NCBI GenBank assembly: GCA_964497185.1
Contig: CAZCBX010000001.1
Span: 5,333-69,332 of the forward strand
DNA from: an uncultured Bdellovibrionales bacterium
Lineage (GTDB): Bacteria > Bdellovibrionota_G > JALEGL01 > JAGRMV01
Length of the DNA stretch: 64,000 nt
Reading direction: 5' to 3'
The position numbers were made by a program, and so were the translations under genes. Positions within the stretch are counted from its first letter, which is position 1; every line of letters starts with the position of its first letter. This document shows, one piece after another, positions 44,583 through 61,079 of this stretch. A model generated the notes under the pieces. It was given only the letters and a program-made list of their open reading frames with translations, ran no database searches and was not told the DNA's origin.

Positions 44583-45956
44583 TTATTTCATCATTTGCAA
44601 ACGTTTCATACGTCGAATCAGAGAAGATCTCGAAATTCCTAACAAAGTGGAGGCTTTTTGTTTTTGCCCAAAAGCTTGATCCAGTGCTTTTTGAATGAGC
44701 TGTTTTTCATACGCGTCAAGGGCCTGCTCAAATTGATTCATTGGCTTGTTGGCAGTCGATGAAGCGGGGGATGTGTTTTCCAAAACATAGGCTGGAATAT
44801 CCTGTGACGTTAATTCGCGATGGTCGGATAACACCAACATGGCATCTATGACATTAAACAACTGTCGTGCATTGCCAGGCCAGTCCATGCTGGATAAGCG
44901 TGCTTTGGTTTCTGCATGGATGGTTTTGTTTTCTTGATTGTGCTCGGTTCGTTCAAGATAATAGTCTATTAAAAGCGGGATGTCCTCTCGGCGTTCACGC
45001 AGGGGCTCCAAATGAAGCTGCACTACCGATAAACGGTAATACAAATCTTCCCGAAAAGTGCCCTCTTGGATTTGGATGCGCAAATCTCGATTGGTTGCGG
45101 CAATGACCCGAAAATTGGACTGAATCATCTGATGGCCACCAACCCGCTCAAATTCTTTTTCTTGTAAGACCCGCAAAAGTTTGGACTGTAGATGCAAGGG
45201 CATCGAACCGATCTCATCCAGAAAAATATCTCCGCCGTTGGCCAATTCAAACTTTCCGATTTTTTGTCGATCGGCTCCCGTAAACGCACCCTTTTCATGG
45301 CCAAACATGATCGATTCCATAAGCTCAGATGGGATGGCTGCACAATTAAGTGCTACGAAGGGCCGTGAATTTTTTTTATGCATGGAGTGAATATATCGAG
45401 ACAGCACCTCTTTGCCTGTCCCGCTTTCACCAATGATCAATACATTCACTTCTGCGTTGGCTACTTTTTGACTGACGAGGCGAAGTTTTTGCACATTTTC
45501 AGATCGACCAATGTATTCTTTGGCCACAGGCTCTGAAGACGAATCATAAATTGGATCATCAAATTGCCAAGCGATTTTACGAATGGATTTTTCAACCGTC
45601 TTATGAAGGTCATCTTTTTCAAATGGTTTGGTGATGTAATCCACGGCGCCAATCTTAAGTGCTTTGGCAATGGATTGCGAGTCGCGATCTCCAGTGAGCA
45701 TCAAATATTGGACATGTTTTCGCTTTCGCTTAAGTTCAGACAAAAGTGCAATGCCGTCGTCCTGATCCAAATGAACATCCAGAATCACCAAATCAGGATG
45801 ATTTTTTTGAAATATTTGTTTTGCCTCATCTCCAGTTTGGGCAGTCCATAAATCGTATCGCTCAGAAAGCTCTAATTTCAATGAGGCGAGAATACCGGGA
45901 TCATCATCGACACAAAGAATAGAAGGCTTGGTACGCATGTTATTTTTCCCTTTCAT
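44583..45956 (-). CDS. Sigma-54-dependent response regulator (NtrC/LuxO-like bacterial enhancer-binding protein)
   Basis: Receiver domain; AAA+ sigma-54 activator domain with GAFTGA (EKGAFTGA); C-terminal Fis-type HTH. Confidence 0.88.
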   Translation of the reverse strand: MKGKNNMRTKPSILCVDDDPGILASLKLELSERYDLWTAQTGDEAKQIFQKNHPDLVILDVHLDQDDGIALLSELKRKRKHVQYLMLTGDRDSQSIAKALKIGAVDYITKPFEKDDLHKTVEKSIRKIAWQFDDPIYDSSSEPVAKEYIGRSENVQKLRLVSQKVANAEVNVLIIGESGTGKEVLSRYIHSMHKKNSRPFVALNCAAIPSELMESIMFGHEKGAFTGADRQKIGKFELANGGDIFLDEIGSMPLHLQSKLLRVLQEKEFERVGGHQMIQSNFRVIAATNRDLRIQIQEGTFREDLYYRLSVVQLHLEPLRERREDIPLLIDYYLERTEHNQENKTIHAETKARLSSMDWPGNARQLFNVIDAMLVLSDHRELTSQDIPAYVLENTSPASSTANKPMNQFEQALDAYEKQLIQKALDQAFGQKQKASTLLGISRSSLIRRMKRLQMMK

Positions 45957-46137
45957 CCATTTGGTCCACCAACGCTTCCAAACGATCCAACGCCTGACCC
46001 GTGAACTCGTAAAAATCCTTCATAAAAGCTTCATCTTCTTTTTTGCTCGGAAGATGCCGCATAAAAGTACGAAGGGTTGTCAGTGGTTGCCGAAGATCAT
46101 GTTGAAGATTTGAAAAAGCCATTGTAGAAGTCTCCAA
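45940..46137 (-). CDS. 65-aa standalone H-box (HisKA/DHp-like) protein, candidate phosphotransfer component
   Basis: NLQHDLRQPLTTL matches the histidine-kinase H-box consensus (hELRTPL); 17-nt overlap with the sigma-54 regulator start suggests translational coupling. Confidence 0.4.
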   Translation of the reverse strand: METSTMAFSNLQHDLRQPLTTLRTFMRHLPSKKEDEAFMKDFYEFTGQALDRLEALVDQMDEREK

Positions 46138-46220
46138 TGCGTATTAGCACAAGCCATGCCATATTTTTACACCACTGGGTGGTCCATAACACACCCATTT
46201 GAATCAATACAGTACACACC

Positions 46221-46235
46221 GTTCGATATCCGAAC
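46221..46235. promoter_or_regulatory. Palindromic operator candidate GTTCGATATCCGAAC in the divergent promoter region
   Basis: Perfect inverted repeat GTTCG-N5-CGAAC about 65 bp upstream of the receiver gene; related copy at 53062-53076. Confidence 0.4.
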
Positions 46236-46300
46236 ATCAATCATGGTCTGCACAAAGATAAACTTGCCATATAACGCCTAACAATAGTATAAAAAAATCA

Positions 46301-46651
46301 ATGAGCCATACGCATTCACTCAAACAAATCTTGGTTCTCATTGATGATGACCCACTGATTCACGCCACATGGTCCATGGTGGCTCAAGCAAAAGGCCATC
46401 AACTTCAATGCTTCACGTGCATTGAAGACTTTAATCAGGCAAGTATCCCCCTGGACGTGCCTGTCTATGTTGATTACCACTTGGGAGAAAAATCGGGCGC
46501 CGACATCATCAAACGCTTGGCTCAAAGAGGGTACGATCATTTATACATCACCACCGGTCGAAAACCCACTGACATCATCAAAGAACCTGAAATGAAAGGA
46601 GTATTTGGCAAAGACTATCCAGAGCAAATTCCTCATTCCAGCTCTTTTTGA
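46301..46651 (+). CDS. Single-domain response regulator (CheY-like receiver only)
   Basis: 116 aa; acidic pocket IDDD; phospho-acceptor in VYVDYHL; conserved Thr (YITTG) and Lys. Confidence 0.75.
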   Translation: MSHTHSLKQILVLIDDDPLIHATWSMVAQAKGHQLQCFTCIEDFNQASIPLDVPVYVDYHLGEKSGADIIKRLAQRGYDHLYITTGRKPTDIIKEPEMKGVFGKDYPEQIPHSSSF

Positions 46652-46677: not shown

Positions 46678-48453
46678 CTAAACAATCGGAATTTGCTGAG
46701 CTAAACTTTTAGGCAATATTTTTAATTCAGTTTTCATGGCCAAATCCAGAAGACTTTCGTCCGCATAATGACTCGAAACCAATATAGAATGGTTTTCTAA
46801 GACATTTCGGTGAATGATTTCTTGCCCGTTCACGGGGCTGCCCAGCAGCTCGTAATCAACAAGAAATAAATAGCCCGTTAGCGAAGGCAACACAGAAATC
46901 CAATTTTCAAAAGAAGTAGAATCATAAAAATGGTGCAATTTGATATGATGGCTGATTTTAAAGTTTTGGAGTCGGTTTTTCCAAACTTGGTGAATGGAAG
47001 AGTCGTCATCAAGAATAATGACATTGGTTATTTGATTCAACGCGATAGAAGAGGGAAACCATGCAGGCGTCCGGGTTAAAGGAAAAATCATTTCTACTTC
47101 CGTACCGCGCCCAGGAGTGCTGGTGATTTCAATGGAGGCACTTGCTTTGTGTAAGTTTTTAAAAGCATGATACAAACCCAGTCCTTTGCCAGAAATTTTT
47201 CTATAGCTAATTCTGTCTCTGCCAAGTTTTTCTAAAACATCAGAAGGAATGCCAACACCATTGTCAGTAATTTTTACACTTGCATGATGGTCTTTTTTGG
47301 TCAAAGATATTTCTACACGCCCCTTAGACGGGATAGACTCAATGGCATTGGATAAAATATTTGAAAAAACTCTTTTCAACTCAACACTGCTAAATTTTAC
47401 AAAAGTATCAAAGGAGTGATCGGAAACAATAAAATCAATGGTAACTTTATCAATTTCTTGATGCTGAATTCTTTTTTCAGCCAGCACATGTTCGATTAAA
47501 ACGACAAGCAGTACAGGTTTTAAATTTTGATCGGTATATTCATCTTCGCTAATATTCGTCAGCGTACTTACAATGCCGTCAATTCGGTTGGTTGCTTCAC
47601 GGATAAGTAAACGATAGTTTTCTGGAATCTCATTTAAAGAGCCCGTAACCACCTTCAAAGCAGTCAGGGGTGATCTAATATCATGAACAACTTGATTGGC
47701 GACGGAGATCACACCTTCTTCTCTAGATTTTTTAGCCAATTTTGCTTGGGTTTCTTCTATCATTCGATTGTATGCATTAAATGCTAAGCTAAGAGTTTGA
47801 ATTTCGCCTACGCCCCGAACTTCTTCAATATTTTTTGCTCTTTTCATGACATCTTGGGTAAGTTTTCTGATAGGTCTTTCAAGATTTTCTATGATCAAAA
47901 GCATAATGCCACTAAAAATGAAAAATACGGAGGTAAAATAAAGCAAATATTTATAAAATTCCTGTTTGAATTCTTGTAAAAAGGAACGGCTTGAAATTTT
48001 TGCAACTATATTTCCCCATTCAGTGCTGTATCGATCTATCAGTTTTATGTTTAACTCAAATTGTCTGGTATTAAAGAAATAATCAATGAATGACCATGTA
48101 TCTGTCAAACCATGTTCACTTCCAACTAAAAATTCCTCTGCCCCGTAGTTGAGCTTTACGTATTGAAAAGATCCATTTTTTACAAGATAGTCCATTTTTC
48201 TTTGAACCGAAGCATATTTGCCCACTTGGAGGTCACTTAAAAAAGATTGTGAGTAGACATTTAGCCATTGGTTTTGATTTTCTACAAAAGTAGAAACGTG
48301 GTCACGAAATGTGGTGAAAGTAAATATTCCAAAAATAAAAAAAAGAGATAAAAAAATCGCTCCCAGCGTAATCATTAATTTTTGTCTAAACAGCATGGAC
48401 TTACTCATTAAAATAAACACTTTCCCACTCAGCCAGGTAACCTTTGATGCCAA
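46678..48453 (-). CDS. Hybrid sensor histidine kinase (HisKA + HATPase_c + C-terminal receiver-like domain)
   Basis: H-box VHDIRSPLTAL; G-boxes (ITDNGVGIP, GKGLGLY); C-terminal ILDDDSSIHQVW...LVDYEL receiver paralogous to the standalone receiver. Confidence 0.82.
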   Translation of the reverse strand: MASKVTWLSGKVFILMSKSMLFRQKLMITLGAIFLSLFFIFGIFTFTTFRDHVSTFVENQNQWLNVYSQSFLSDLQVGKYASVQRKMDYLVKNGSFQYVKLNYGAEEFLVGSEHGLTDTWSFIDYFFNTRQFELNIKLIDRYSTEWGNIVAKISSRSFLQEFKQEFYKYLLYFTSVFFIFSGIMLLIIENLERPIRKLTQDVMKRAKNIEEVRGVGEIQTLSLAFNAYNRMIEETQAKLAKKSREEGVISVANQVVHDIRSPLTALKVVTGSLNEIPENYRLLIREATNRIDGIVSTLTNISEDEYTDQNLKPVLLVVLIEHVLAEKRIQHQEIDKVTIDFIVSDHSFDTFVKFSSVELKRVFSNILSNAIESIPSKGRVEISLTKKDHHASVKITDNGVGIPSDVLEKLGRDRISYRKISGKGLGLYHAFKNLHKASASIEITSTPGRGTEVEMIFPLTRTPAWFPSSIALNQITNVIILDDDSSIHQVWKNRLQNFKISHHIKLHHFYDSTSFENWISVLPSLTGYLFLVDYELLGSPVNGQEIIHRNVLENHSILVSSHYADESLLDLAMKTELKILPKSLAQQIPIV

Positions 48454-49954
48454 TAAATTTGATATTTTTTAGATTTTTACTGGTGACGATCTTGGATTGA
48501 TTATGAACAATCGGGTAAGCCAAACTCTTTTTAATAAGGTAATGATCAATCGATGAATAAAGCCTAAATTTTTCCTCTATGGTATTGGATTTTTTTAGAT
48601 TTTCAAAATAAGTGTCTAAATCGTCGTGTTTTCCACCGATAAGATATTCATTTGAATCTTTGTAAAAATATTGCAAGGCGGACATGGGGTCTTCATTTTT
48701 AAAATAAAGTTTTTCAATCCAGACTGGAAGTTTTTGATTTTCATACAATTTGAATATTTCTGAAAAGGGAAGTACGACGGTTTCAACGCCGATTTCCAGC
48801 AAAGGCTTCCTAACAATGTCCAAAATGCAGTCCACCTGCTGATCATCAGCGATATGGAAGACCAAATTGTTAAATTTTTTATTTTTCACAACAGTTTGTA
48901 TATCCTCCTTATAACTCTGCGAAGAACCAATTAATCCTTTTGGAATAATCGAACTGGCTACGTTTTGATTCCCGTAGCAAACCTCTCGAATTTTATGAAT
49001 GGGAATGTTTGACAGTAAATATTTTCTGTACTCAACATTTTTTAATTCATCAAAATGATCTGAATTGATGATAATTGTTTCCGTACTGTATTCAGCAATC
49101 TCTTGATACGCAAAGTGGTCCAATTTTTCGATCTCAGAAAAATCGTCAATGCTATAAAAAATAAGATCCGCAACCTCACCAAGCTTGTACTTTTCTATGG
49201 CAACAGACTTTGCCTGCTGTGAAATAACAATGGTTTTGATTTTGGGTGCGTCGCCATAGTAATACTGATTTCTAGAAAGCTTGATCTCACCTTTTTTTGT
49301 TTCCACGACTGCATAAGGACCAGAAGAAACCGGGTATGAAAAATACGCCTCTTTTGCCATGTCACTAAAATTGTGTGGATAAATACAAAACCGCGGAAGG
49401 GAAAGGTTCATCATAAATTGATCGTAAGAATGAATAAGCTCAATATCAAGTGTCCGGTTGTCAACAATGCGGATACCATTTATGAATGGATTTTTTTCTT
49501 CTCTATACTCTTTTGCACCCAAAATTTGTGTTAACACGCTGCTATCCAGAGCATCTTTGTCGACCCATTGATGGAAAGAGAAGGCAATATCTTTGGCATT
49601 GATTTTTTCGCCATTAGAAAACCGAACTTCATCACGAAGATGCAATCGATAAATTTTTTTATCGGTATCAAATTCCCATGATTTCAACAAATCAGGCTTA
49701 ATGCCAAATGAATCATCCACCTTCACCAAATGGCTATAGATTGGATACAGTAGAGCTTTTTGAATAGAATCAGGGACTTTTTGTGGATTGAGGTTGTCAG
49801 GACGGACCGGAACCAAAATATTCCATACTTTGCTTTGGCTTGAAATTCTTTTTTGGTTAATTCTAGATAATTTTCCGAGAGAAAACGAATAAACCAAAAT
49901 TAAAATTCCAGTAAAAATGAGTATGAATGGCGCATATTTTTTCGGCATAATCAT
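48401..49954 (-). CDS. Periplasmic solute-binding protein, family 5 (Opp/Dpp-like), encoded without an ABC permease or ATPase
   Basis: 517 aa with signal/anchor; SBP_bac_5-like sequence; 53-nt overlap with the downstream kinase gene. Confidence 0.68.
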   Translation of the reverse strand: MIMPKKYAPFILIFTGILILVYSFSLGKLSRINQKRISSQSKVWNILVPVRPDNLNPQKVPDSIQKALLYPIYSHLVKVDDSFGIKPDLLKSWEFDTDKKIYRLHLRDEVRFSNGEKINAKDIAFSFHQWVDKDALDSSVLTQILGAKEYREEKNPFINGIRIVDNRTLDIELIHSYDQFMMNLSLPRFCIYPHNFSDMAKEAYFSYPVSSGPYAVVETKKGEIKLSRNQYYYGDAPKIKTIVISQQAKSVAIEKYKLGEVADLIFYSIDDFSEIEKLDHFAYQEIAEYSTETIIINSDHFDELKNVEYRKYLLSNIPIHKIREVCYGNQNVASSIIPKGLIGSSQSYKEDIQTVVKNKKFNNLVFHIADDQQVDCILDIVRKPLLEIGVETVVLPFSEIFKLYENQKLPVWIEKLYFKNEDPMSALQYFYKDSNEYLIGGKHDDLDTYFENLKKSNTIEEKFRLYSSIDHYLIKKSLAYPIVHNQSKIVTSKNLKNIKFIGIKGYLAEWESVYFNE

Positions 49955-49956
49955 AT

Positions 49957-51816
49957 TTATAGTTTGTTTTCAAACATGATTCCAAAATTCATTGATTCTG
50001 GATCATCATAATAATCTTTGAGTAATCCCAAATCAGTTGCGCCTGAGCTTGTGGCGGCACGGTAGCCATATTCATTGTATTTGGATATTTTTAAACCAGA
50101 ATGATACTGATCGATGGAAATCCCAAGCTCATGCCAATAGGCAAAGTTAGGGATTCGTATTCCATAAAAAATAGATTTAATGGCCTCTTCTTTATAAAAG
50201 ATCTTTGCAGCACGAATAATTTCAACTGCTGTCCCTATGGGCGCGTCTGGTAAGACAGAAATGGAAACAATGTATCTAGAATCAAAGTTGGACAAGGTTT
50301 TTTTAGCATAATCAATGCATGCATAATGATGCCACTTATGTTTTTTCATGGCTTGACTTTGATTGCATGGTACTGAATAGATAAAACCCACTGGTTTTCC
50401 TTTATTTCGGCTATAAGCGATCAGAAAATTATCAGGCTTTATTTTTAGTCTTTCTCGAATGGTTTCTTTGCTGGCGGCATGTTTTTTGAGCCATGATCCA
50501 TCTTCAATGTTGGATAAAATATCTACATCGCTTTCAAGAGCTTGAAATACAGCAATTTGATCTTTGGTGCGTGTAGTTGTTTTAGAAATGTATTTTTGAA
50601 CAGAAAAAGAAAAATCATCCAATTTTTGATTGAAAGACGAAATTCTTTGGGCAATCCTGGGTTGCTCATTGGATTCATTGGTCCATAAAACTTCTTTGTT
50701 CCCAACCAGCAAGGTGAGTTGATTTTGCTGCGCTTTTTCTAAGTCCAAATCAAAAACTCTTCCTTCATATGGATTGGTTAAAAACTCCCCCGTCCACCGA
50801 CCGTTTAATTCTATATCACCATCTTTCAAGGGTTTGCCAAGGGCCGTGTGGATAAGAAGCTCACCTATGTTCTCGTTTATTAAAGTTCGATTGATAAGCT
50901 CAGGCATATAGTCACCGGCTATTCGTGCATTGACTTCAATGAGAACAGGCATTTCATTGACCAGCTTAAATTCAATATGTGTCCAAGAGTTTTGTATTTT
51001 TAATGTTGTGTGACATGCCTGCGCGAAATTTTGGATGGCCTCCAAAATTTTCTCATTTTGAATATTGGTTGGAAAAGTATCGGATAATTCATTGGTGCAG
51101 TGAGTTTTTTTATCCGTAATACCAATGACGTGCGTTTTTCCATTGAGCACCATAGACTCTACACTGTACTCGTTGCCATAGATGATCTCTTCAACGACAA
51201 TGTCTTGAGTAATGTTACCATAAATTTTTCGTAAATTCTCCTCATGAAAATCAATGGTTCTTAATTCTTGTATAGCACCAAACAGTTCTTTTTCATTGTT
51301 GATGATTTGAACGCCAAGGCTGGCCATCATTTGTGCAGGTTTGATGATGAATGGAAACGCTAAATTTTTTTCCTTTAATTCATCATAAGTCGGACTTGCA
51401 TCTGAAAAGTAATAAAAATTTGGATTATAATGTGAAAAGGAACTTTGAATTTTCTCTCGCACTAAGCCTTTGTGTCGATAACTTGCTTGCGGGTCTTGAC
51501 TAATTGAAGGCAATTGAAGATCCATTTGCAGTTGATTGCAAAATCCCACGGAGGTCTCAACCCAACACAACGCCCCACAGATTTTCAACTGATATTTGGA
51601 AGCATATTGTTTGGTTTGCTGGGTTAAGTCATGGTGGCTTTGATAATCAAATACAAAGCCTTTAATAGAATATTTTTCTTCCAACCAGGAATAGTCCATA
51701 AAGGCAAGACCCTGAGCGTAAATAAAATGATAATCGGTGTTTTGCTTTAGTTGTTCCACCAAGTAAGCTTTGGAAGATTGAAAACCAGGTTCGACAATGA
51801 TGATTGTTTCTTTCAT
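49957..51816 (-). CDS. ATP-grasp ligase fused to a ~220-aa C-terminal domain of unknown function
   Basis: 619 aa; N-terminal ~400 aa ATP-grasp fold (carboxylate-amine ligase-like); extra C-terminal domain. Confidence 0.6.
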   Translation of the reverse strand: MKETIIIVEPGFQSSKAYLVEQLKQNTDYHFIYAQGLAFMDYSWLEEKYSIKGFVFDYQSHHDLTQQTKQYASKYQLKICGALCWVETSVGFCNQLQMDLQLPSISQDPQASYRHKGLVREKIQSSFSHYNPNFYYFSDASPTYDELKEKNLAFPFIIKPAQMMASLGVQIINNEKELFGAIQELRTIDFHEENLRKIYGNITQDIVVEEIIYGNEYSVESMVLNGKTHVIGITDKKTHCTNELSDTFPTNIQNEKILEAIQNFAQACHTTLKIQNSWTHIEFKLVNEMPVLIEVNARIAGDYMPELINRTLINENIGELLIHTALGKPLKDGDIELNGRWTGEFLTNPYEGRVFDLDLEKAQQNQLTLLVGNKEVLWTNESNEQPRIAQRISSFNQKLDDFSFSVQKYISKTTTRTKDQIAVFQALESDVDILSNIEDGSWLKKHAASKETIRERLKIKPDNFLIAYSRNKGKPVGFIYSVPCNQSQAMKKHKWHHYACIDYAKKTLSNFDSRYIVSISVLPDAPIGTAVEIIRAAKIFYKEEAIKSIFYGIRIPNFAYWHELGISIDQYHSGLKISKYNEYGYRAATSSGATDLGLLKDYYDDPESMNFGIMFENKL

Positions 51817-51827
51817 TGATTCTCCGT

Positions 51828-52991
51828 TTAAAAAAAAGAATGGGGCCAGTTTGTAATCATGTTTTCAATAAAATTGGAAAGGGCTGGCATTGTCCAGAAT
51901 CCAATGTGAACTGAAGCAATATAAGGCCCAACCAAACAAATAAAAGCATCAAAAGCCAAAATGCGGTTGATGTAAGGTCCACTTAACTTTTTATAGGAAA
52001 ATAAATAATGGTCAATATTGGGCAGTTGATATGCTTCACAAACACTCCACACCACAAAAAATGGAATCCCAAGCCAGAAATTAGAAATGAGCAGCATGAT
52101 CGTGCAGAAAAAAGCAATTAAGCTAATAACATCATAGCGGCGCAAGGAAAATTCCAAAATTTTTGTCTTTATGGAAATAAGTTGAATCAAAATGACAGCA
52201 ATGGGGTTAAAACCCAATATTATTGCACTATACTTTGCTTCTAAATTGATGGCACTGGCTTTGATGGGTATGGCAGAAATCATAATGGCATAAGGAAGTA
52301 CAAACCCCAAAAAGCGTAAAACATCTTGCAAGACGTTGTGGATCGAAGCAATGCTTTCAACTTCTAAGTGGTTTGATTCCACTTGCTTGGTTTCTTTAGC
52401 AGAATCAAATGTGAATGGCTGATCCAGCCACCGCAAGATTTTCGAGGATATAACGGCGCCAGCGCTCCCTAGTAAAAAAACAACAAGAGTCGGAAAGGAC
52501 GCTTCCAACAGAAAAGCACCAACAAGCGGAAAAACAAGAAAAGCCAGATTGGTGGTGATGCCAAATAAAATGTATAAATTACCTTTTCCCTTGTAAAAAT
52601 TTACAAACTCACCCAGCAGATAACGACTTTTTTTGTAATAAATGGCCTGGGACAAACCAAAAGAAATAAAACTCACAATTTGCAATATCGGGACAGGTAC
52701 GAAAATAAGACAAAGGGCAGCCATTCTGGTGCAAAGCATCAAAGCAATGTGGGTTGTCCATTTTTCTCCGAAAAAGGAAATCAACCACACGCCCCCCACC
52801 TGCAGCCCAGCAAAAAGCCCCATGCCCAAGATGATGGCAGAGCGCAGCTTTGTTTCTTCAATGGGTAGATGCAAAAAAAGCGCATTCACGCCAATGTAGG
52901 CATAAGACCCAAAGAAGAAAAAATTCGAAAGGCCCAGAAGCCCAAGTTTTGAAAACAGTCTATTCATGAATAATGATTGCCTATAGAGCAT
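51828..52991 (-). CDS. Polytopic membrane protein (10-12 TM), possibly a transporter
   Basis: Hydrophobic helices throughout; start adjusted to ATG (MLYRQSL). Confidence 0.5.
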   Translation of the reverse strand: MLYRQSLFMNRLFSKLGLLGLSNFFFFGSYAYIGVNALFLHLPIEETKLRSAIILGMGLFAGLQVGGVWLISFFGEKWTTHIALMLCTRMAALCLIFVPVPILQIVSFISFGLSQAIYYKKSRYLLGEFVNFYKGKGNLYILFGITTNLAFLVFPLVGAFLLEASFPTLVVFLLGSAGAVISSKILRWLDQPFTFDSAKETKQVESNHLEVESIASIHNVLQDVLRFLGFVLPYAIMISAIPIKASAINLEAKYSAIILGFNPIAVILIQLISIKTKILEFSLRRYDVISLIAFFCTIMLLISNFWLGIPFFVVWSVCEAYQLPNIDHYLFSYKKLSGPYINRILAFDAFICLVGPYIASVHIGFWTMPALSNFIENMITNWPHSFF

Positions 52992-53061
52992 AAACCATAC
53001 CAACTTTTTAAGTTCTAGCCACTGGATTAGCTTATTTTAAACCATGTATTTGATTGAAGAT

Positions 53062-53076
53062 GTTCGGTATCCGAAC
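53062..53076. promoter_or_regulatory. Palindromic operator candidate GTTCGGTATCCGAAC (second copy)
   Basis: Extended palindrome ATGTTCGG-TAT-CCGAACAT in the divergent intergenic region. Confidence 0.4.
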
Positions 53077-53141
53077 ATAATGTGCAGACCGCTGAGATAT
53101 ACGTTCGTCAATTGATGCCAAACAAGAGTATAAAAAGATCA

Positions 53142-53345
53142 ATGAGCCATACGCATTCACCCAAACAAATCCTAGCCCTCATTGATGATGACCCACTGAT
53201 TCACGCCACATGGTCCATGGTGGCTCAAGCAAAAGGCCATCAACTTCAATGCTTCTATTCGCTAGACAAGTTTTGCACTGCATATGTCCTCATTTATACA
53301 TATATTTTTGTTGGCTATCATTTAAATGACAGAAAAGGCACCTAA
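53142..53345 (+). pseudogene. Truncated duplicate of the single-domain response regulator 5' end
   Basis: First 38 codons (MSHTHSPKQILALIDDDPLIHATWSMVAQAKGHQLQCF) near-identical to 46301-46414 (~77 bp identical at DNA level), then unrelated sequence and early stop. Confidence 0.6.
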
Positions 53346-53744
53346 GTTATAAAAAAGTTGGCCAGAAGCGGTTTTTCTTCGCTCTTTATTACAACTGGAC
53401 ATGACAAAAGCACCATTCATTCTTTTTCCCCAGCGAGAGCTGTTTTTGGAAAAAATTATCCTTAGTTCATATGAGTGAATATGTTGTCAGCCCCAAGATA
53501 AATATTTCAGTTGCTATCACTAAATCGAACAAATGTGATTGGAATCCAAACAAATCATTAATTTCTTTCCCATGGGTTTTGGCGGGTTTTCAGTCATCTT
53601 TATCTTTATTTTTTTGATTAACAGAACCTATCTAAAATCTTATAGCGTTTGGAAATAGAACGAACTTGTTCTGTTTCCAAATTATTTTTGTAGAAATAAT
53701 GCATCCTTTCCAGGATACGGTACGGTTTTTTTTACTTTAACCGT

Positions 53745-53760
53745 TGGCATACTCATTGCT
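53745..53760 (+). promoter_or_regulatory. Candidate sigma-54 (-24/-12) promoter for the biosynthetic operon
   Basis: TGGCAT-actca-TTGCT with GG-N10-GC spacing; imperfect palindrome TTTGGAAATAGAAC-gaac-TTGTTCTGTTTCCAAA at 53650-53684 about 90 bp upstream could be an enhancer-binding-protein site. Confidence 0.4.
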
Positions 53761-53772
53761 CTATGCCTTCAC

Positions 53773-55059
53773 ATGAAAATAAAAAATGTTGTACAAAGAA
53801 ACTGGCAAAAAGAGAAAATTAAAAAATCATCATTTCACCAAAATCTTTCCTTTAGCTCTGGCATTAACAACAAAAATGTCACTTCAAGAAAAGAGAAATG
53901 GATCGAACTTGCAGATGGAACCAGCGCCACAGAATTCATGTCTTGCTCATACCTGGGATTAGAAACTGACAACCGCCTTAAGAATGCCGCACTAAGTGCT
54001 ATCGATCAATATGGTGTGCAACTTGCTGTAGCTAGAACCAGAATCAAACCAATCATTTGTGAAGAGCTTGAAGAAAATCTACAAACCATTTTTCAAGGCC
54101 CTACGGTTACGTTTAGTACTGTAGGTCTAACTCACCTTGCCATCTTCCCTCTTCTAGGGGCTGGTGTTTTACCGTCGTATCCAGTGAGTGTCAATGGGCC
54201 GCTTTGGATCATGGATAAGACATCTCATGCTTCCATTCAGATTTTACGGGGTATCATGCAACAAAATGGTGAAGTGATTCGGGTATCATTCTCTGACCAT
54301 CAGGCACTTGCAGATGCATTTCAGTATGCACATAAAAGCCAAAGAACGCCTATCTCCATATCTGATGGTGTTGGTTCTATGGGAGGAGATGCTCCGGTTC
54401 GACTTCTAGTAGAACTTTCTTACAAATACAATGGATATGCATACATTGACGATGCCCATGGCACGTCAATTATGGGTAAATACGGAGGGGGATATGTCAT
54501 TCACGAGCTAAATGACACTCTCGATCCAAGAGTGATACTGGTCTCATCACTTTCGAAGGCATTTGGAGCCACTGGAGGCTGTGTAACGGTCCGAAGTCCT
54601 AACGATAAGGACACCATTCAACGATTTGGAACACCATATATCTTTGGCGGGCCTGTTTCACTTCCCGGTATCGCTGCAGCCCTTGCATCATCTGAAATTC
54701 ATATACAAGATGAAATCTATACGCTGCAAAATAAACTACAAGAAAACATAAAGCACTTTGATACCTTGGCTGGCAATAAGACAATTAACTTCAAAAAACG
54801 CATTCCCATTCGTGGTCTTGTTGTGGGGGATGAGGTGAAGTGCCTTAGCGTTTCAAAACAAATGTGGGAAAGAGGTTTTGGAACGACCGCTGCTATGTAC
54901 CCGACGGTACAAAAAGGCGAAGCCATGCTCCGCGTAGCGCTTTCCGTCCTCCATACAAAAAAACAAATAGAAAACCTCATTTATACGTTTCAGCATGCAA
55001 GACAAGGTTTGCATATTGTCACAGACACTCTCAAGGGATCCTCCAATGTACACGTATAA
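53773..55059 (+). CDS. PLP-dependent alpha-oxoamine synthase (BioF/Kbl/SPT/CqsA/LqsA family)
   Basis: 428 aa; N-terminal SYLGLETD motif; PLP-lysine motif SLSKAFGATGG; no bioA/B/D genes nearby. Confidence 0.75.
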   Translation: MKIKNVVQRNWQKEKIKKSSFHQNLSFSSGINNKNVTSRKEKWIELADGTSATEFMSCSYLGLETDNRLKNAALSAIDQYGVQLAVARTRIKPIICEELEENLQTIFQGPTVTFSTVGLTHLAIFPLLGAGVLPSYPVSVNGPLWIMDKTSHASIQILRGIMQQNGEVIRVSFSDHQALADAFQYAHKSQRTPISISDGVGSMGGDAPVRLLVELSYKYNGYAYIDDAHGTSIMGKYGGGYVIHELNDTLDPRVILVSSLSKAFGATGGCVTVRSPNDKDTIQRFGTPYIFGGPVSLPGIAAALASSEIHIQDEIYTLQNKLQENIKHFDTLAGNKTINFKKRIPIRGLVVGDEVKCLSVSKQMWERGFGTTAAMYPTVQKGEAMLRVALSVLHTKKQIENLIYTFQHARQGLHIVTDTLKGSSNVHV

Positions 55060-55909
55060 ATGTAAGACCGGATCCTCATCAATCCTACCTAATGGTAATG
55101 ACGTGCGGGCAAAATTATCAAAACATGGAGCTGTACTCTTTCGGGGGTACCGAATCTGCGTGAAAAATTTTGATCAGTATACAAATCAATTTGGTAACGA
55201 ACACTTGATTCATGGATCTATAAGGAAAAAAATTAATGCCAAAGATACCATTCAAGATGTCACAAAAGGCCAGGGAAAAGTATTGCCCCATATAGAAATG
55301 GGAAGAATGCCTACAAAACCCAATCAAGTTTGGTTCTTGAGCGAAAAGCCGGCTCTTATCGGGGGCGAAAGTACACTCGTTGATGGTATCAAGGTTGCTG
55401 AAAGCCTACCTGATCATGTGCGTAATTTCTTTAGGGATAATCCTATTTCTTTTCAAGCAAAAGTTTCTAAATTCTCTTGGCAGAGACTTTGGGGTATCCA
55501 AACACTAAGCGAATTAAAAGATCGTATGGATATGCTTTCCGTAAATCCTAACATTTCATTTGAGATGAATAAAGAAGATGAATCATTTATTGGAAGATAC
55601 AGCACCAGCGCATTTATCACTCAACCTGATGGAAAATTAGCTTTTAGTAATAGTATCGTAGGACCTTATGAAGGCCCTAGTGGAGGAGAATGCAGAATGC
55701 TAAATGGCAATCCAATTCCATCATCAATAATCGAAACCATCTTGAATTGCTACCAATACAATATGAACACAATTACCATGGATCCCGGAGATTTTATGGT
55801 CGTTAACAATCATCGCTTTATGCATGGCAGAGAAGCGTTTCGAGTAAAACCAGGTGATACAAGAAAAATGTATGCAAAACTTATCAAAGGAGAATTTCAT
55901 GCAATCTAG
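55046..55909 (+). CDS. Fe(II)/2-oxoglutarate-dependent dioxygenase (TauD/TfdA / clavaminate-synthase-like)
   Basis: HxE-type motif (PHIEMG) and distal HRFMHGR; start adjusted to MYTYKCK, 14-nt overlap with the upstream gene. Confidence 0.58.
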   Translation: MYTYKCKTGSSSILPNGNDVRAKLSKHGAVLFRGYRICVKNFDQYTNQFGNEHLIHGSIRKKINAKDTIQDVTKGQGKVLPHIEMGRMPTKPNQVWFLSEKPALIGGESTLVDGIKVAESLPDHVRNFFRDNPISFQAKVSKFSWQRLWGIQTLSELKDRMDMLSVNPNISFEMNKEDESFIGRYSTSAFITQPDGKLAFSNSIVGPYEGPSGGECRMLNGNPIPSSIIETILNCYQYNMNTITMDPGDFMVVNNHRFMHGREAFRVKPGDTRKMYAKLIKGEFHAI

Positions 55910-56951
55910 TCTAAAAGTGAATCAAATGATTCAACACGATACAAAACCTACACTTCAAGACCGCTCATTGGTTCAAATTATTACTTCTTATAGAAGCGCC
56001 AGCGCTTTGTATGCTTTTGTGAAGCTCGACCTCCCTACATTCATTCACAACAATTCTTCACCAACACTGAAGAAAGCTGCTTTTTACTCTGGTGTTCCCA
56101 TCGAAAAACTATCTCGACTCATGGATGTCATTGCCATGGAACAAATCGTAGCGATCGAAAATTCTTGTTTACACCTAACAACCAAAGGCAAACAATTGGC
56201 TACAGATAAGAGCCTAAGAGACTGGATTTTATGCGAGCTTAGCCCTACCTATTGGAATGTCTGGGCCAACCTAACAGACGCCCTCCAACAAAACATAGAC
56301 TGTGCTTTCGACTCTACACACAACCAGTCCTTTTTTCCCTACCTAAAAGAGAATGAGAATTTTCATAAACTATTTCAAAGCGTCATGACAAATTACTCGA
56401 TTCGAGCAGGGGCAGAAGTCGCGAAAGCAATCAACTTTGAGGATGATAAAAAAATCGTAGATGTGGGTGGAGGCCACGGCCACATGCTTTTTAGCATCCT
56501 CAAAGCCAATCAACACCTTCATGGATGCGTATTCGAGCTGCATGAGAATTATAAAGGATTTCAGATTGAAAAACAAAAAACCGGGCTTCTTGATCAAAGA
56601 GCAACTTTCCAATCCGGCAATTTCATGCATGAAGCTATTCCAAGGTGTGACACAATCATCATGAAAAATATTATTCATGATTGGGACGATGAAAATGCCG
56701 TTCATATACTTTCAGCATGTAGACAATCCCTGAAAAACAACGGCCGTATCATCCTGGCGGAAATTTTGAAATCTGAGGATCCACTTGACTCTTTAGGTAA
56801 AAGTTTGGATCTGCTTATGATGCTGCTATTCAATGGGAAAGAGCGAAATTATTCGCAATATCAATCTTTGGCTGAACAATCAGGCCTAACCATCAGCAAC
56901 ATCTACCCAACTAGAGGACCGCTTTCGTTGATTGAACTGAGAAAGGCATGA
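55899..56951 (+). CDS. Class I SAM-dependent O-methyltransferase (dimerisation domain + Rossmann fold)
   Basis: SAM motif VDVGGGHGH; start MQSSLKV preceded by AAAGGAGAA; 11-nt overlap with the dioxygenase gene. Confidence 0.75.
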   Translation: MQSSLKVNQMIQHDTKPTLQDRSLVQIITSYRSASALYAFVKLDLPTFIHNNSSPTLKKAAFYSGVPIEKLSRLMDVIAMEQIVAIENSCLHLTTKGKQLATDKSLRDWILCELSPTYWNVWANLTDALQQNIDCAFDSTHNQSFFPYLKENENFHKLFQSVMTNYSIRAGAEVAKAINFEDDKKIVDVGGGHGHMLFSILKANQHLHGCVFELHENYKGFQIEKQKTGLLDQRATFQSGNFMHEAIPRCDTIIMKNIIHDWDDENAVHILSACRQSLKNNGRIILAEILKSEDPLDSLGKSLDLLMMLLFNGKERNYSQYQSLAEQSGLTISNIYPTRGPLSLIELRKA

Positions 56952-57910
56952 ATATGCGTTGCTATTGGGTAGTTTGTTACAAAGATTTTGACGAGCAAAC
57001 GAGAAAAAAAATTGAAAACAAGTACCACAAGATGTTTCAAGAAGCATCAGAAAAGCACGGAATATCATTTTCGTTCATCGATAGTGAGGATCTCTCCATA
57101 ACATGTGATCATAAAACGAATATATGCTTGGGTAATCAGAATATTGCAACCGAAGATACAGCGTTTTTGATTTCAAATTTTAGTATGGACCCAAAAAGAA
57201 AGCGATACTTAGATCAGCTTTATTATGCTTTCCTTGAAAGCGACAGTACACTCCTTAACAAAACATTCTATCATGGGGCGCACCTTGAGAAAAATAAGTT
57301 TTCTATGACGCAACTCATAACTCAGCTTGGAATACCTAATATACCTACACACTTCATGAAACCCTCAGGTGATCTAAAACACGCAGAATTATTTTATCAG
57401 AACCACTGCATTGATCATGGCGCAATGCTAAAACCCAATGAAATGGGCATGGGCATTGGTATTTCTCATTGCAAATCCTGGCAAGATACCAAAGATACCT
57501 GGCAGCGTGATGGAAAAGACGTTGATTATATTTTGCAGCCCTATATTCCGCATATAGGAGATCTAAGATTATACCTTTACAACCACAGTGTTGTTGAGGG
57601 TCAATTTCGCATTGTTCCGAATGGACGACATCAAGCCAATATCTCTCAGGGTGCAATGAGCAAAGATGTTGAGTTCCCACAAGCATTACGAACTTTAGCA
57701 AAAAATATAAGTAGACACGTCGGTGCTGAGCAGTGCTGCATTGATTGGCTCATCACAGAAAAATCATTTTTCTTTAACGAAATCACAACAACACTAGGTG
57801 GGTTCACTGGGCTAAAGGAGAGCAAGCAAAAAGTGCTTGCAGACAGACTATTTAATTACATCCAATACCGTATAACATCGAACAAAGAAAAGAGAAACGT
57901 ATGGCCCTAA
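56948..57910 (+). CDS. ATP-grasp family ligase (RimK/GshB-like)
   Basis: 320 aa; ATP-grasp C-terminal half (DYILQPYIPHIGDLRLYLY...EITTTLGGFTGL). Confidence 0.6.
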   Translation: MNMRCYWVVCYKDFDEQTRKKIENKYHKMFQEASEKHGISFSFIDSEDLSITCDHKTNICLGNQNIATEDTAFLISNFSMDPKRKRYLDQLYYAFLESDSTLLNKTFYHGAHLEKNKFSMTQLITQLGIPNIPTHFMKPSGDLKHAELFYQNHCIDHGAMLKPNEMGMGIGISHCKSWQDTKDTWQRDGKDVDYILQPYIPHIGDLRLYLYNHSVVEGQFRIVPNGRHQANISQGAMSKDVEFPQALRTLAKNISRHVGAEQCCIDWLITEKSFFFNEITTTLGGFTGLKESKQKVLADRLFNYIQYRITSNKEKRNVWP

Positions 57911-59208
57911 CCTTACTTGAAAATTCTTACCTCACGTCCATCAAAGACATCTATGCACTTCAACATCAAAATGCACTCGCAACAATCCAAAGGCTTTCAA
58001 AGATTGATGCATATAAAGACAAATTAATTGGAATTGATCAAAATAATTGGAAAAATGATTGGTTCAAGGTTCAACAAATGAAAGCTCTGGACGTTGAAGC
58101 AACGCAAAAACAAGATGAAGCAAGAACAGCAGGCCCAGTCCTTCGGTCAGGTGGAACTAGCAGTCTTCGTAAGGTTATTCATCATTCTTGGAGATTTAAT
58201 GACCAAGTTACTCACCTTGGTGTGCGTTCATTTCAGGCAATTACAAACAAGACGAATTTTCGCATTGCCAATTGTTATAGCAGTGGTGATATGTTGGGGG
58301 CTTATTTTTTTGCAGAATCTATCGCTAGAGAGTTACGTTTACCCTACTACCCGATTGGAAGCTCGGTTCCTCTTGAAGAGACCCTCAATATAATCTCAGA
58401 CCACAAGATTGATATACTTATGGCAACGCCATCATACGCACAAAGCCTGTATCATCATGCCTCTATCAGAAATCAAAAAGAAAAATTATCATCTATATCG
58501 ATCATTCTGTATTTAGGAGAGATGTTTCCAAAAACATTTTATGAAAAAATTTGTAGCCTTCACCCGAATGTTTGCATCCATAATTTATCCTATACAACGA
58601 CCGAAACGGGACCGATTGGATATCAATGCACCTCATTGCCAAATGATTGTTTTCACATTCATGAGGACGCGATTTGGGTTGAAGTTATTGAGCCAATCAC
58701 AAAGCAGCCTATTATGGATGTGCCAGGCAATATTATCGTAACCCCCTTTTCAAGCACAGGTATCCCACTTCTTCGATATGACACAGGTGATAAAGGAATA
58801 TTGCGGTCGGTATCATGTCAATGTGGGCACAAAACAAGAGTGATTCAACTATTGGGAAGAAGTCAACAATCCATTAAAATTTGCGGTGCCATTATACAAA
58901 AGAGTTATATTATCGACTCTATTAGAAGTATATGTAAAGAAGCTCTCGTTAATGAAACCAATATTCAAGTCCAACAAATTCAGAACCATGATGGCATTCA
59001 AGTCAAAATATTGCTCAATAAGAAAAATTGGACGTGTATTTCAGCCAGACGAATTGAGGATAGACTGAGACAAGATCATCACTTCTCGTTTATTGTATCT
59101 CACCCTGCTTGTAGGCTCTTTGGTGTTTCGTCGGTTCCCTTCACTGAGTTTGCAATGACAAAAAGCGGAAAAACACCGTTTTTTATTACGATCCATGAGA
59201 AGCAATAA
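57901..59208 (+). CDS. Adenylate-forming enzyme of the PaaK / coenzyme F390 synthetase-like family
   Basis: P-loop-like RSGGTSSLRKV where PaaK has SSGTTGKP; 435 aa. Confidence 0.6.
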   Translation: MALTLLENSYLTSIKDIYALQHQNALATIQRLSKIDAYKDKLIGIDQNNWKNDWFKVQQMKALDVEATQKQDEARTAGPVLRSGGTSSLRKVIHHSWRFNDQVTHLGVRSFQAITNKTNFRIANCYSSGDMLGAYFFAESIARELRLPYYPIGSSVPLEETLNIISDHKIDILMATPSYAQSLYHHASIRNQKEKLSSISIILYLGEMFPKTFYEKICSLHPNVCIHNLSYTTTETGPIGYQCTSLPNDCFHIHEDAIWVEVIEPITKQPIMDVPGNIIVTPFSSTGIPLLRYDTGDKGILRSVSCQCGHKTRVIQLLGRSQQSIKICGAIIQKSYIIDSIRSICKEALVNETNIQVQQIQNHDGIQVKILLNKKNWTCISARRIEDRLRQDHHFSFIVSHPACRLFGVSSVPFTEFAMTKSGKTPFFITIHEKQ

Positions 59209-60414
59209 ATGAAAAACAACAATCCAAACCTAATTCCTCGCTGCACGATAACGTATGTTCTACTGACAAATATAGATTTTTTGATCATATTGCCTCTCAT
59301 TCCAGTGCTCGTAGGGGCTGAACATGGAAATGTAGCCACGAAAGTTGCATCAATTTTGTCGATGCGCATCTTTTTTTCAATGGGGTCTTCACTTTTTTCG
59401 TCGATCCTATTCAAAAAAACAAGCTATGGGACACTCCTTGCTATTGCGGCTATTTCTCGAGCCATTGCGTTTTTCATGCTGTTTCGATTCGATCTAACCA
59501 GTTTGTACTTATTTGCAGGCATTGCTGGTTCTGCCACAGGTCTTATTCGCCCAAGTGTTCGGGCTCTTTTGGCAGACACAACATCAGGAACGACAAAAAC
59601 ACTGTATTTTCAGTTTCTTTTCATTGCTATGAACGCTGCATTTGTCATTGGCCCTACAATATCTCGTTGGATCATGAAAAAAGACATCCTTGCAACAATA
59701 ATTGCTTACTTGATCACCATCGAGATCGCGCTTGCTCTAATGATGATCATGGTTGGTCGCCATGTAAAACCTCAGCATAATGAAACCAGCCAAGACAAAC
59801 CTTCGCTCCTGTCTATTGAAAGATACAGGCATTTTTTTTCTCCATTGCTCCAAATAGCTCTTTTCTATGAATTTCTTGCCTTTTTTGGCATTGGTTTCAT
59901 GATCGCTTGTTTTGTTTTATATAATAAAATCATTCCTGAACTTGGTGATTTTCGGCATTTTCTCCTAAGTTTTGAAGGATTTGCCATGATTGTAATGCAG
60001 TTGGTACTGCTACCCTTATTTACAAAGTTACGGGGAACAATTAAAATGCTACTTGTCAGCATATGTTTTGGAACAGGTGTGTACCTTGCATTTACACCTC
60101 CGTTATGGGTCGTTATTGTTGGATTAGTTGTTTTTGCTCTGGCAGAGTCTATTCTCTTGCCGCATATACAATTACTCATGTCAAAGGCATCAACCTCAGC
60201 CAACAGAAGACAAATCTATGCACTTGCAACATGCATCGCTGCATTGGGTGAAATTTGTGGTAACTTTTGCGCTGGCTTTATAATTGATGCACCATACTTT
60301 TCTCACCAACCCGCTACCAATGGACAAATTGTTGGGGTGCTGTTTCTTTTTGCCTTTGTTGCTTTGACCTTACATTATAGGCAACAAGAAAATATCATGA
60401 ATGATTCCATATAG
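59209..60414 (+). CDS. MFS transporter (probable product exporter)
   Basis: 401 aa, 12 predicted TM helices; start codon abuts the upstream gene's stop. Confidence 0.72.
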   Translation: MKNNNPNLIPRCTITYVLLTNIDFLIILPLIPVLVGAEHGNVATKVASILSMRIFFSMGSSLFSSILFKKTSYGTLLAIAAISRAIAFFMLFRFDLTSLYLFAGIAGSATGLIRPSVRALLADTTSGTTKTLYFQFLFIAMNAAFVIGPTISRWIMKKDILATIIAYLITIEIALALMMIMVGRHVKPQHNETSQDKPSLLSIERYRHFFSPLLQIALFYEFLAFFGIGFMIACFVLYNKIIPELGDFRHFLLSFEGFAMIVMQLVLLPLFTKLRGTIKMLLVSICFGTGVYLAFTPPLWVVIVGLVVFALAESILLPHIQLLMSKASTSANRRQIYALATCIAALGEICGNFCAGFIIDAPYFSHQPATNGQIVGVLFLFAFVALTLHYRQQENIMNDSI

Positions 60415-60782: not shown

Positions 60783-61079
60783 TTGGCCAAGACCCAAGAT
60801 GTTGCATTCAAGACGGCCAAACATCGGGTGGCGGCCAAAGGCGCCATTGATCTCAAAGAACAAACCTACCAAAATTTTGAAATTGGATTTTTGGATGCCC
60901 AAGGCTGTGCCAAGCTGGTGCAAACCATCGAAGGCCCGCTGACCCAACCCTCGTTTCGCATCACGCGATCATTGATCAAAACCATCACCGCTCCGGTGAC
61001 CAACATGTCCGACCGCGTAGAAAACTTGCTGACCGGGGGCTGTGACGTTTTTTATCAGGGCACCGTTTCGCACCCCTAA
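60783..61079 (+). repeat. Direct repeat B: orphan AsmA 3' fragment (right island junction)
   Basis: Encodes ...LAKTQDVAFKTAKHRVAAKGAIDL...CDVFYQGTVSHP, near-identical to the C-terminus of the full AsmA gene but with no upstream coding context. Confidence 0.8.

Follow-up and report, generated by a model that had tools for sequence, protein, structure and literature searches.

The closest described counterpart of the element considered here, promoter P1 and the palindrome upstream of it that precede a six-gene biosynthetic operon in a 64-kb stretch of DNA from an uncultured Bdellovibrionales bacterium (contig CAZCBX010000001.1; the whole stretch of 64,000 nt is hereafter called the window), is the NtrC-controlled promoter glnAp2. 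Inverted sites two helical turns apart are the classical layout for the assembly of NtrC-type oligomers, as with NtrC at glnAp2. Both systems have a GG-N10-GC core with extended consensus, two dyad-like activator sites some 80 to 120 bp upstream with whole-helical-turn spacing, an activator composed of a REC domain, an AAA+ domain with the GAFTGA motif and a Fis-type helix-turn-helix (HTH), and a regulator operon that is autoregulated or, here, appears to be so. They differ in the sites, which are GTTC-N7-GAAC-like here and TGCACC-N5-GGTGCA for NtrC, and in the activator, which falls below the NtrC equivalog cutoff (402.7 versus 558.6). They differ also in the leader of the transcript, predicted at only ∼2 nt here, and in the target, which is an operon of secondary-metabolite type and not one of nitrogen assimilation.

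The signalling genes recall the Vibrio LuxQ(LuxP)-LuxU-LuxO pathway. A periplasmic binding-protein gene is coupled to a hybrid kinase, a small histidine phosphotransfer protein is encoded in one operon with a sigma-54 activator, and the target promoters are of the sigma-54 type. This likeness is one of topology, and points to how the system may work rather than to family membership. In place of an Hpt domain, the relay protein here consists of a HisKA/H-box helix pair of 60 aa, which is Spo0B-like in principle; protein-coding operons take the place of the Qrr small RNAs (sRNAs) as targets; and no known autoinducer synthase is present. The activator had been described as LuxO-like in an initial reading made from the letters alone (the sequence-only reading), but its score on the LuxO model (NF041946) was 327.2 bits where 800 are required, and membership of that family was rejected.

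The first enzyme of the operon shares its broad fold class, that of the BioF/Kbl alpha-oxoamine synthases, with the autoinducer synthases CqsA and LqsA, and it is likewise encoded beside a two-component system. Its assignment as a synthase of that type failed, with 47.5 bits on the CqsA-type model (NF005526; cutoff, 428); instead, it falls in the NCBIfam subfamily PRK07505 (422.9 versus a cutoff of 342). Its partners, a TauD-family enzyme, an O-methyltransferase, two ligases and an MFS transporter, point away from an alpha-hydroxyketone and towards a modified amino acid or a peptide-like compound as the product.

The PexR-type regulons of Myxococcus resemble this locus in that sigma-54 promoters and repeated upstream activating sites (UASs) lie between divergent regulator and target genes, in an intergenic region common to both, whereas the regulator family and the signal differ from those here (PMC12754779). 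In the PexR system, the leaderless regulator mRNA originates from a sigma-A promoter and not from the sigma-54 one (PMC12754779).

P1 and the probable paired activator sites

The features on which the argument turns are the following.

53745..53760, plus strand: P1, sigma-54 -24/-12 element TGGCATACTCATTGCT; exact consensus match, first in the window with an approximate sigma-54 position weight matrix (PWM), 16.6 bits
53668..53682, plus strand: activator site B-right, GTTCTGTTTCCAAAT; right palindrome arm, beginning 77 bp upstream of the TGG of P1
53647..53661, minus strand: activator site B-left, GTTCTATTTCCAAAC; left palindrome arm read on the minus strand, beginning 98 bp upstream of the same TGG
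53773..60414, plus strand: biosynthetic operon of six genes, downstream of P1
44583..45956, minus strand: NtrC-family sigma-54 activator (REC, AAA+ with GAFTGA, Fis-type HTH); likely start at 45938 (451 aa)

Judged from the sequence, P1 and the palindrome very probably (about 0.7) constitute a sigma-54 promoter with paired sites for the neighbouring NtrC-type activator. The sequence-only reading had placed a TGGCAT-N5-TTGCT element with GG-N10-GC spacing 13 to 28 bp before the first open reading frame (ORF) of the operon, and this was correct. P1 reads TGGCAT (53745-53750), ACTCA and TTGCT (53756-53760), with GG at 53746-47 and GC at 53758-59, and lies in intergenic DNA on the same strand as the ORF, whose ATG is at 53773. 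It is the sole occurrence of TGGCAYN5TTGCW in the window. A PWM scan had been put forward as a measure of match quality, and when both strands of the window were scanned P1 obtained the highest score. This score, the correct orientation and the pairing with activator sites described below lend computational support to the proposed promoter. Between 53400 and 53773 no sigma-70-like promoter was predicted.

The start codon of the first ORF is secure. In an alignment with 22 homologues, similarity sets in at a conserved NW (residues 10-11), the homologues beginning 1 to 10 residues earlier, and between the upstream stop and this NW the frame offers no canonical start other than ATG 53773. A few homologues have longer N-terminal extensions.

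The palindrome was also found where it had been reported, with TTTGGAAATAGAAC (53648-53661) and GTTCTGTTTCCAAA (53668-53681) as 14-nt arms that contain one mismatch (93% complementarity) and are separated by a 6-nt spacer. Its centre lies ∼82 bp upstream of the GG of P1. The proposal that it acts as a UAS was supported in so far as its arms match a motif found upstream of activator orthologues (see below), and was refined from one palindromic element to two inverted 15-bp sites, B-left and B-right, 21 bp (two helical turns) apart. Given that both arms match the motif, the palindrome is best read as two inverted activator sites at this spacing. The central GAAC-N6-GTTC was also considered as a single dimer site and was rejected, because the half-sites of the orthologues run GTTC...GAAC and each entire arm matches that motif.

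The activator itself contains a Sigma54_activat domain (7e-70), its GAFTGA motif falling at residue 223, and no other sigma-54 activator of this type is encoded within the 64 kb, in agreement with the claim that an NtrC-family regulator is the sole one nearby. It scored under every equivalog cutoff, those of AtoC, ZraR and GlrR included.

Probable sister promoters and the activator motif

Two further candidate promoters of the same kind occur in the window, each just 5' of the first gene of its operon.

46161-46146, minus strand: P3, sigma-54 element TGGCATGGCTTGTGCT; 15.0 bits, window rank 2, 23 nt before ATG 46122
46221..46235, no strand assigned: activator site A1, palindrome GTTCGATATCCGAAC; begins 74 bp upstream of the P3 TGG
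53002-52987, minus strand: P2, sigma-54-like element TGGTATGGTTTATGCT; 12.9 bits, window rank 5, 19 nt before ATG 52967
53062..53076, no strand assigned: activator site A2, palindrome GTTCGGTATCCGAAC; begins 74 bp upstream of the P2 TGG

A weaker second site is present near A1 (46201-46215), and the gene downstream of P3 has a GGAGA ribosome-binding site before ATG 46122. Alignment identified the P2 and P3 regions as old, diverged duplicates. Three parts have been kept, namely the -24/-12 element, the palindrome of 15 bp and a block adjacent to the REC genes, the intervening DNA being essentially random; the distance from promoter to palindrome is gapless. As these elements are ungapped and conserved amid diverged DNA, they were taken as the footprint of function.

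The motif was defined from orthologues of the activator, a group with 53 to 69% identity found on Bdellovibrionota contigs. Seven of their loci were fetched (L089-L095). Among named sources, Bdellovibrionales/Bdellovibrionota metagenome-assembled genomes (MAGs) hold the nearest relatives of the activator. A trio is conserved in these loci, consisting of a divergent REC gene, the intergenic region, and the genes for the 60-aa HisKA protein (mini-HisKA) and the activator. The sequence TGGCAY-N5-(G/A)TGC(T/A) is found immediately upstream of the mini-HisKA gene in 7/7 loci, and since it precedes this gene in every case P3 appears to be a conserved, autoregulated sigma-54 promoter. When the loci were anchored on the TGG, GTTC-N7-GAAC-like 15-mers were observed beginning at -74 to -81, a range with which the -77 of B-right agrees, and several loci have a second 15-mer at -54, one 21-bp step away. 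An unsupervised one-site-per-sequence search of six non-redundant orthologue upstream regions recovered the same element in five of them. The recognition-helix region of the activator, ISRSSLIRRMKRL, is identical in the orthologues P0122-P0145, which justified pooling their sites, and has diverged in the more distant P0146, P0149 and P0151.

To score the window, a PWM was built from eight hand-picked orthologue sites, with no window sequence included, and applied to 127,972 window positions. A1, B-left, A2 and B-right ranked 1, 2, 3 and 6, respectively. Because the hand-picked sites had been chosen with the window sites already known, the scan was redone with the sites from the unsupervised search, and the same four sites then ranked 37-56, 4-7, 27-32 and 45-81. 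An AT-rich local background was tried for the unsupervised PWM and abandoned, as GC-rich backbone matches were then ranked first; the values given are those rescored with the window background. B-left was in addition recovered independently, as a match with ≤3 mismatches to GTTCGRTATCCGAAC, the palindrome of P2 and P3.

An excess over chance emerged when the two kinds of site were considered jointly. A sigma-54 PWM match accompanied by an activator-type site 50-105 bp upstream was counted in the window and in 200 first-order Markov simulations of it. Three pairs were observed, exactly P1, P2 and P3, whereas the simulations gave 0.02 on average and never more than 1.

Further pairs of a sigma-54 element with a GTTC-N7-GAAC-type site precede neighbouring genes in the orthologue loci, mostly genes of unknown function, and thus a conserved small regulon is implied for this activator family. 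The pairs (promoter, strand, then activator site) are as follows.

L089: 3585, minus strand; site 3628-42
L090: 13365, minus strand; site 13415-29
L094: 20788, minus strand; site 20848-62
L091: 7079, minus strand, and 7210, plus strand; site 7122-36

A metagenome scan with the activator produced one unrelated locus only (L088), which was discarded. Four metagenome contigs carry the same segment as the window, and as they are ≥99.9% identical to it they were of no use for footprinting.

Observations against the assignment and alternative explanations

A number of observations weigh against P1 being a sigma-54 promoter served by this activator. The pattern TGGCAYN5TTGCW is expected 0.53 times per window and occurred at least once in 48/100 shuffles, so that on its own the exact match is not beyond chance. 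Window matches to the sigma-54 PWM at ≥12.5 bits numbered 8, against a simulated mean of 8.1, and the frequencies of this PWM only approximate those of the compilation of Barrios et al. 1999. The eight-site activator PWM is partly circular, its sites having been picked after those of the window had been seen; the unsupervised ranks are weaker than the hand-picked ones, although all of them still fall in the top 0.07% and the sites have the offsets expected. In the B sites the outer halves are degenerate, with AAAC and AAAT in place of GAAC, and a scan for terminators also picks up the palindrome. The predicted leader of P1 is ∼2 nt long and has no Shine-Dalgarno sequence, which is unusual for sigma-54 promoters. 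Some 80 other homologous operons in the reference genomes scanned carry no sigma-54 motif. Finally, rpoN is not in the 64-kb window, and the presence of sigma-54 in the lineage is implied only indirectly, by the conserved -24/-12 motifs before the orthologous activator operons.

Several of these points would be accounted for if the P1 match were due to chance and the operon were read with a normal leader, either from an unrecognised sigma-70-type promoter or by read-through. The frequency of the pattern in shuffled sequence, the awkward leader and the lack of the motif before most homologous operons are what such an explanation has in its favour. We nevertheless consider it quite improbable. 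P1 is the top-scoring site of the window, is correctly placed and oriented, and is paired with two activator-type sites at the offset typical of the lineage; the region 53400-53773 offers no sigma-70-like promoter in its stead; and short leaders are typical of the sister promoters. Sigma-54 motifs recur, besides, before two of the closest homologues of the first enzyme. Thus, L086 has an exact TGGCATAGAATTTGCT (103-118) located 118 bp before the ATG, and L016, a Bacteriovoracaceae MAG, has TGGCCCAGCCCTTGCT (9946-9961) 43 bp before the ATG. Both have normal leaders and a Shine-Dalgarno sequence and neither carries a GTTC-type site, so these operons would be served by other activators. Among the ∼80 homologous loci scanned, sigma-54-like motifs were found only in these two and, weakly, in L085, and in none of the loci was the regulatory module present. 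Sigma-54 control of the operon therefore appears to be local to the lineage, and P1 itself is without deep conservation, as far as these comparisons go.

The short leader deserves separate consideration. With C 53759 taken as -12, the predicted +1 is A 53771, ∼2 nt before ATG 53773, and the near-leaderless geometry noted in the sequence-only reading is therefore real. The leaders of the sister promoters are also short (∼12 nt for P3 and ∼9 nt for P2), those of the orthologue promoters range from 2 to 17 nt depending on the start codon chosen, and numerous genes of this genome have no Shine-Dalgarno sequence. Transcripts with ≤5 nt ahead of the start codon are classed as leaderless (PMC12754779). 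The short sister leaders, the frequent lack of a Shine-Dalgarno sequence in the genome and this usage together soften the difficulty; even so, translation from an mRNA with a ∼2-nt leader would be the weakest step of the proposed scheme. Nothing directly applicable was found in the literature on sigma-54 promoters with leaderless mRNAs.

A second alternative concerns the palindrome, and involves the two receiver genes of the locus.

46301..46651, plus strand: REC1, single-domain receiver, divergent from P3
53142..53468, plus strand: REC2, REC1 paralogue with an in-frame TAA at 53343-53345, upstream of P1

Over its first 114 coding bases and the 25 bp before them, REC2 matches REC1 (46276-46414) at 94% identity; the remainder is strongly diverged, and REC2 looks like a probable pseudogene or, otherwise, a gene-conversion patch. 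A conserved block, GCCWAACAAKAGTATAAAAARATCA, lies immediately 5' of both REC start codons (46276-46300 and 53117-53141); its TATAAA stands only ∼8 nt from the ATG, so that the REC genes too may have a very short leader or none.

The palindrome might serve mainly as an intrinsic terminator or insulator against plus-strand transcripts from the REC2 region, its likeness to activator sites being incidental. As RNA (53647..53682, plus strand) it would form a hairpin of 16 pairs with a 4-nt loop, followed by the tail TATTTTTGTA, and the fold of -19.9 kcal/mol (z = -5.9) was not equalled in any of 200 shuffles; a same-strand gene remnant, REC2, does lie upstream. However, the stem is AT rich, with only 4 G-C pairs, and stands ∼180 bp past the end of REC2, which is a probable pseudogene and the only same-strand gene upstream, while no comparable hairpin follows the intact paralogue REC1. 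A terminator alone, moreover, fails to explain why both arms match a motif from other genomes at the very offset found there. We regard a mainly terminating role as quite improbable, bearing in mind that the two roles are not exclusive and may coexist. An Rfam search over 52900-53900 gave nothing credible (best match, E = 0.89), and a known riboswitch or sRNA in this interval was accordingly rejected.

The least probable alternative is that P1 is real and is controlled by an activator encoded elsewhere, or that an unrelated dimeric regulator binds the palindrome: such bacteria often encode many sigma-54 activators, the B sites are unlike the A sites in their outer halves, and L086 and L016 show related operons with sigma-54 motifs and no site of this type, but the motif is tied to the activator family, being conserved upstream of orthologues with an identical recognition helix, the encoded activator is the sole one within 64 kb, and the architecture is common to all three promoters of the segment.

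Proposed regulatory circuit

The remaining genes of the presumed circuit are these.

45940..46122, minus strand: mini-HisKA, 60-aa H-box/HisKA helix pair only (HDLRQPLTTLRTF), co-operonic with the activator
46678..52967, minus strand: P2 operon, four genes, the membrane protein transcribed first
51828-52967, minus strand: membrane protein, 379 aa, first gene of the P2 operon
49957-51816, minus strand: ATP-grasp enzyme, 619 aa, second gene
48401-49954, minus strand: SBP_bac_5 binding protein, third gene
46678-48408, minus strand: hybrid histidine kinase with a C-terminal REC-like domain, fourth gene

The best explanation of the locus as a whole, to which we assign a probability of roughly 0.72, is that P1 is functional, that the palindrome is its enhancer, and that a single activator drives the three promoters of the segment. 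From the motifs, with their positions and conservation, and from the domains of the activator, we infer activator binding, sigma-54 dependence and the start site. P1 would be the functional sigma-54 promoter of the six-gene biosynthetic operon, and the enhancer would consist of GTTCTATTTCCAAAC and GTTCTGTTTCCAAAT, with centres 21 bp apart, bound by the activator encoded at 44583-45938. Once phosphorylated, the activator would oligomerise at the enhancer, contact the sigma-54 holoenzyme by looping and open P1, with transcription starting at ∼53771. The same protein would drive P3 and P2, each through a GTTCGRTATCCGAAC palindrome beginning 74 bp upstream, P3 serving its own operon (mini-HisKA and activator) and P2 that of the membrane protein, ATP-grasp enzyme, binding protein and hybrid kinase. 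As one activator would drive all three promoters, sensor, relay, regulator and biosynthetic enzymes would be raised together, and this joint induction would amount to positive feedback on the signalling proteins. It would be an ordinary kind of switch, whose only unusual trait is a predicted transcription start almost on the start codon.

The phosphorelay would run from the hybrid kinase to REC, then to mini-HisKA and finally to the activator. Mini-HisKA may be a phosphotransfer protein, Spo0B-like and of minimal size; its gene is kept directly upstream of each orthologous activator gene (L089-L094). The SBP_bac_5 gene overlaps the start of the kinase gene by 8 bp, and the arrangement suggests a binding-protein co-sensor of the kinase. 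The C-terminal receiver-like domain of the kinase is of the atypical subfamily of REC1 and was undetected by Pfam.

The sequence-only reading had gone further, suggesting a loop in which a signal made by the operon returns through kinase and regulator to the synthase promoter. At the level of the regulators this feedback is supported by the same layout of promoter and site before the P3 and P2 operons. Its chemistry found no support, the first enzyme lying outside the CqsA/LqsA family and the regulator below the LuxO cutoff. A true autoinduction loop, with the kinase sensing the product of the operon, is thus a hypothesis that we rate as rather unlikely.

A broader version also seems unlikely, in which all that is needed for autoinduction, with a new type of chemistry, is contained in the 16-kb segment as one cassette that may have been gained by horizontal transfer. 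According to it, the product made and exported by the P1 operon would be a modified amino acid or a peptide-like compound, this would be sensed outside the cell by the SBP_bac_5 protein together with the hybrid kinase, and REC, the 60-aa HisKA-only protein and the sigma-54 activator would relay the signal so as to turn on all three promoters, the biosynthetic one delivering an essentially leaderless mRNA. If true, it would represent a quorum-sensing-like circuit of Bdellovibrionota that uses no known family of autoinducer synthases.

The preferred explanation, that of a single activator acting on P1, P2 and P3, would be of interest by itself. If correct, a compact three-promoter regulon with a defined activator motif of the GTTC-N7-GAAC type has been reconstructed from sequence alone, for a regulator family conserved in uncultured Bdellovibrionota, a group in which gene regulation is poorly known. 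The orphan biosynthetic operon could be switched on by means of phosphomimetic or constitutive variants of the activator, and P1 would make it possible to ask whether leaderless translation can be supplied by a sigma-54 promoter. The idea of autoinduction is narrowed to one step, the recognition of the operon product by the binding protein and the kinase.

Biosynthetic operon

The operon encodes, in order, the BioF/Kbl-like pyridoxal phosphate enzyme (53773-55059), a TauD-family dioxygenase, an O-methyltransferase, a RimK-like ATP-grasp ligase, a PaaK-like adenylating enzyme and an MFS transporter. For the TauD-family gene two starts are conceivable, either ATG 54995 (304 aa, with a 65-bp overlap with the first gene) or GTG 55160 (249 aa), the latter being the start used in the metagenome annotation.

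Enzymes of the PRK07505 type are widely scattered (L005-L084), occurring in Klebsiella, Pseudomonas, Photorhabdus, Bartonella, Coxiellaceae, Francisella, Chlamydiae, actinomycetes and myxobacteria. They are often encoded beside PaaK-like and RimK-like ligases, in what looks like an uncharacterised small biosynthetic cassette. The literature on clusters of oxoamine synthases with ATP-grasp enzymes yielded nothing directly applicable.

Repeat-bounded segment and its surroundings

The activator, the signalling genes and the biosynthetic operon are contained in a segment of ∼16 kb bracketed by two direct repeats.

44271..44555, plus strand: direct repeat, left copy, 285 bp, 3' end of an AsmA-family gene
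60783..61067, plus strand: direct repeat, right copy, 285 bp, 93% identical to the left copy

As the activator gene sits between the repeats, its earlier description as island encoded is correct in relation to them. The G+C content is 0.33-0.42 at 46-60.5 kb, compared with ∼0.49 elsewhere, and two layers can be distinguished between the repeats: the genes of the activator, mini-HisKA and REC1 have 0.43-0.46, whereas the remainder has 0.33-0.42. The activator gene, at ∼0.44, is intermediate between cargo and backbone. The window contains no recognised tRNA gene, and the segment genes that were scanned against Pfam include no integrase.

The methylmalonyl-CoA mutase of the host has its best named matches in Bdellovibrionota MAGs (81% identity). 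Genes of the propionyl-CoA carboxylase/methylmalonyl-CoA mutase pathway flank the segment on both sides, and the backbone beside it encodes multi-haem cytochrome-like proteins (62905-63930, minus strand, and beyond, at 20545-21287 of L001).

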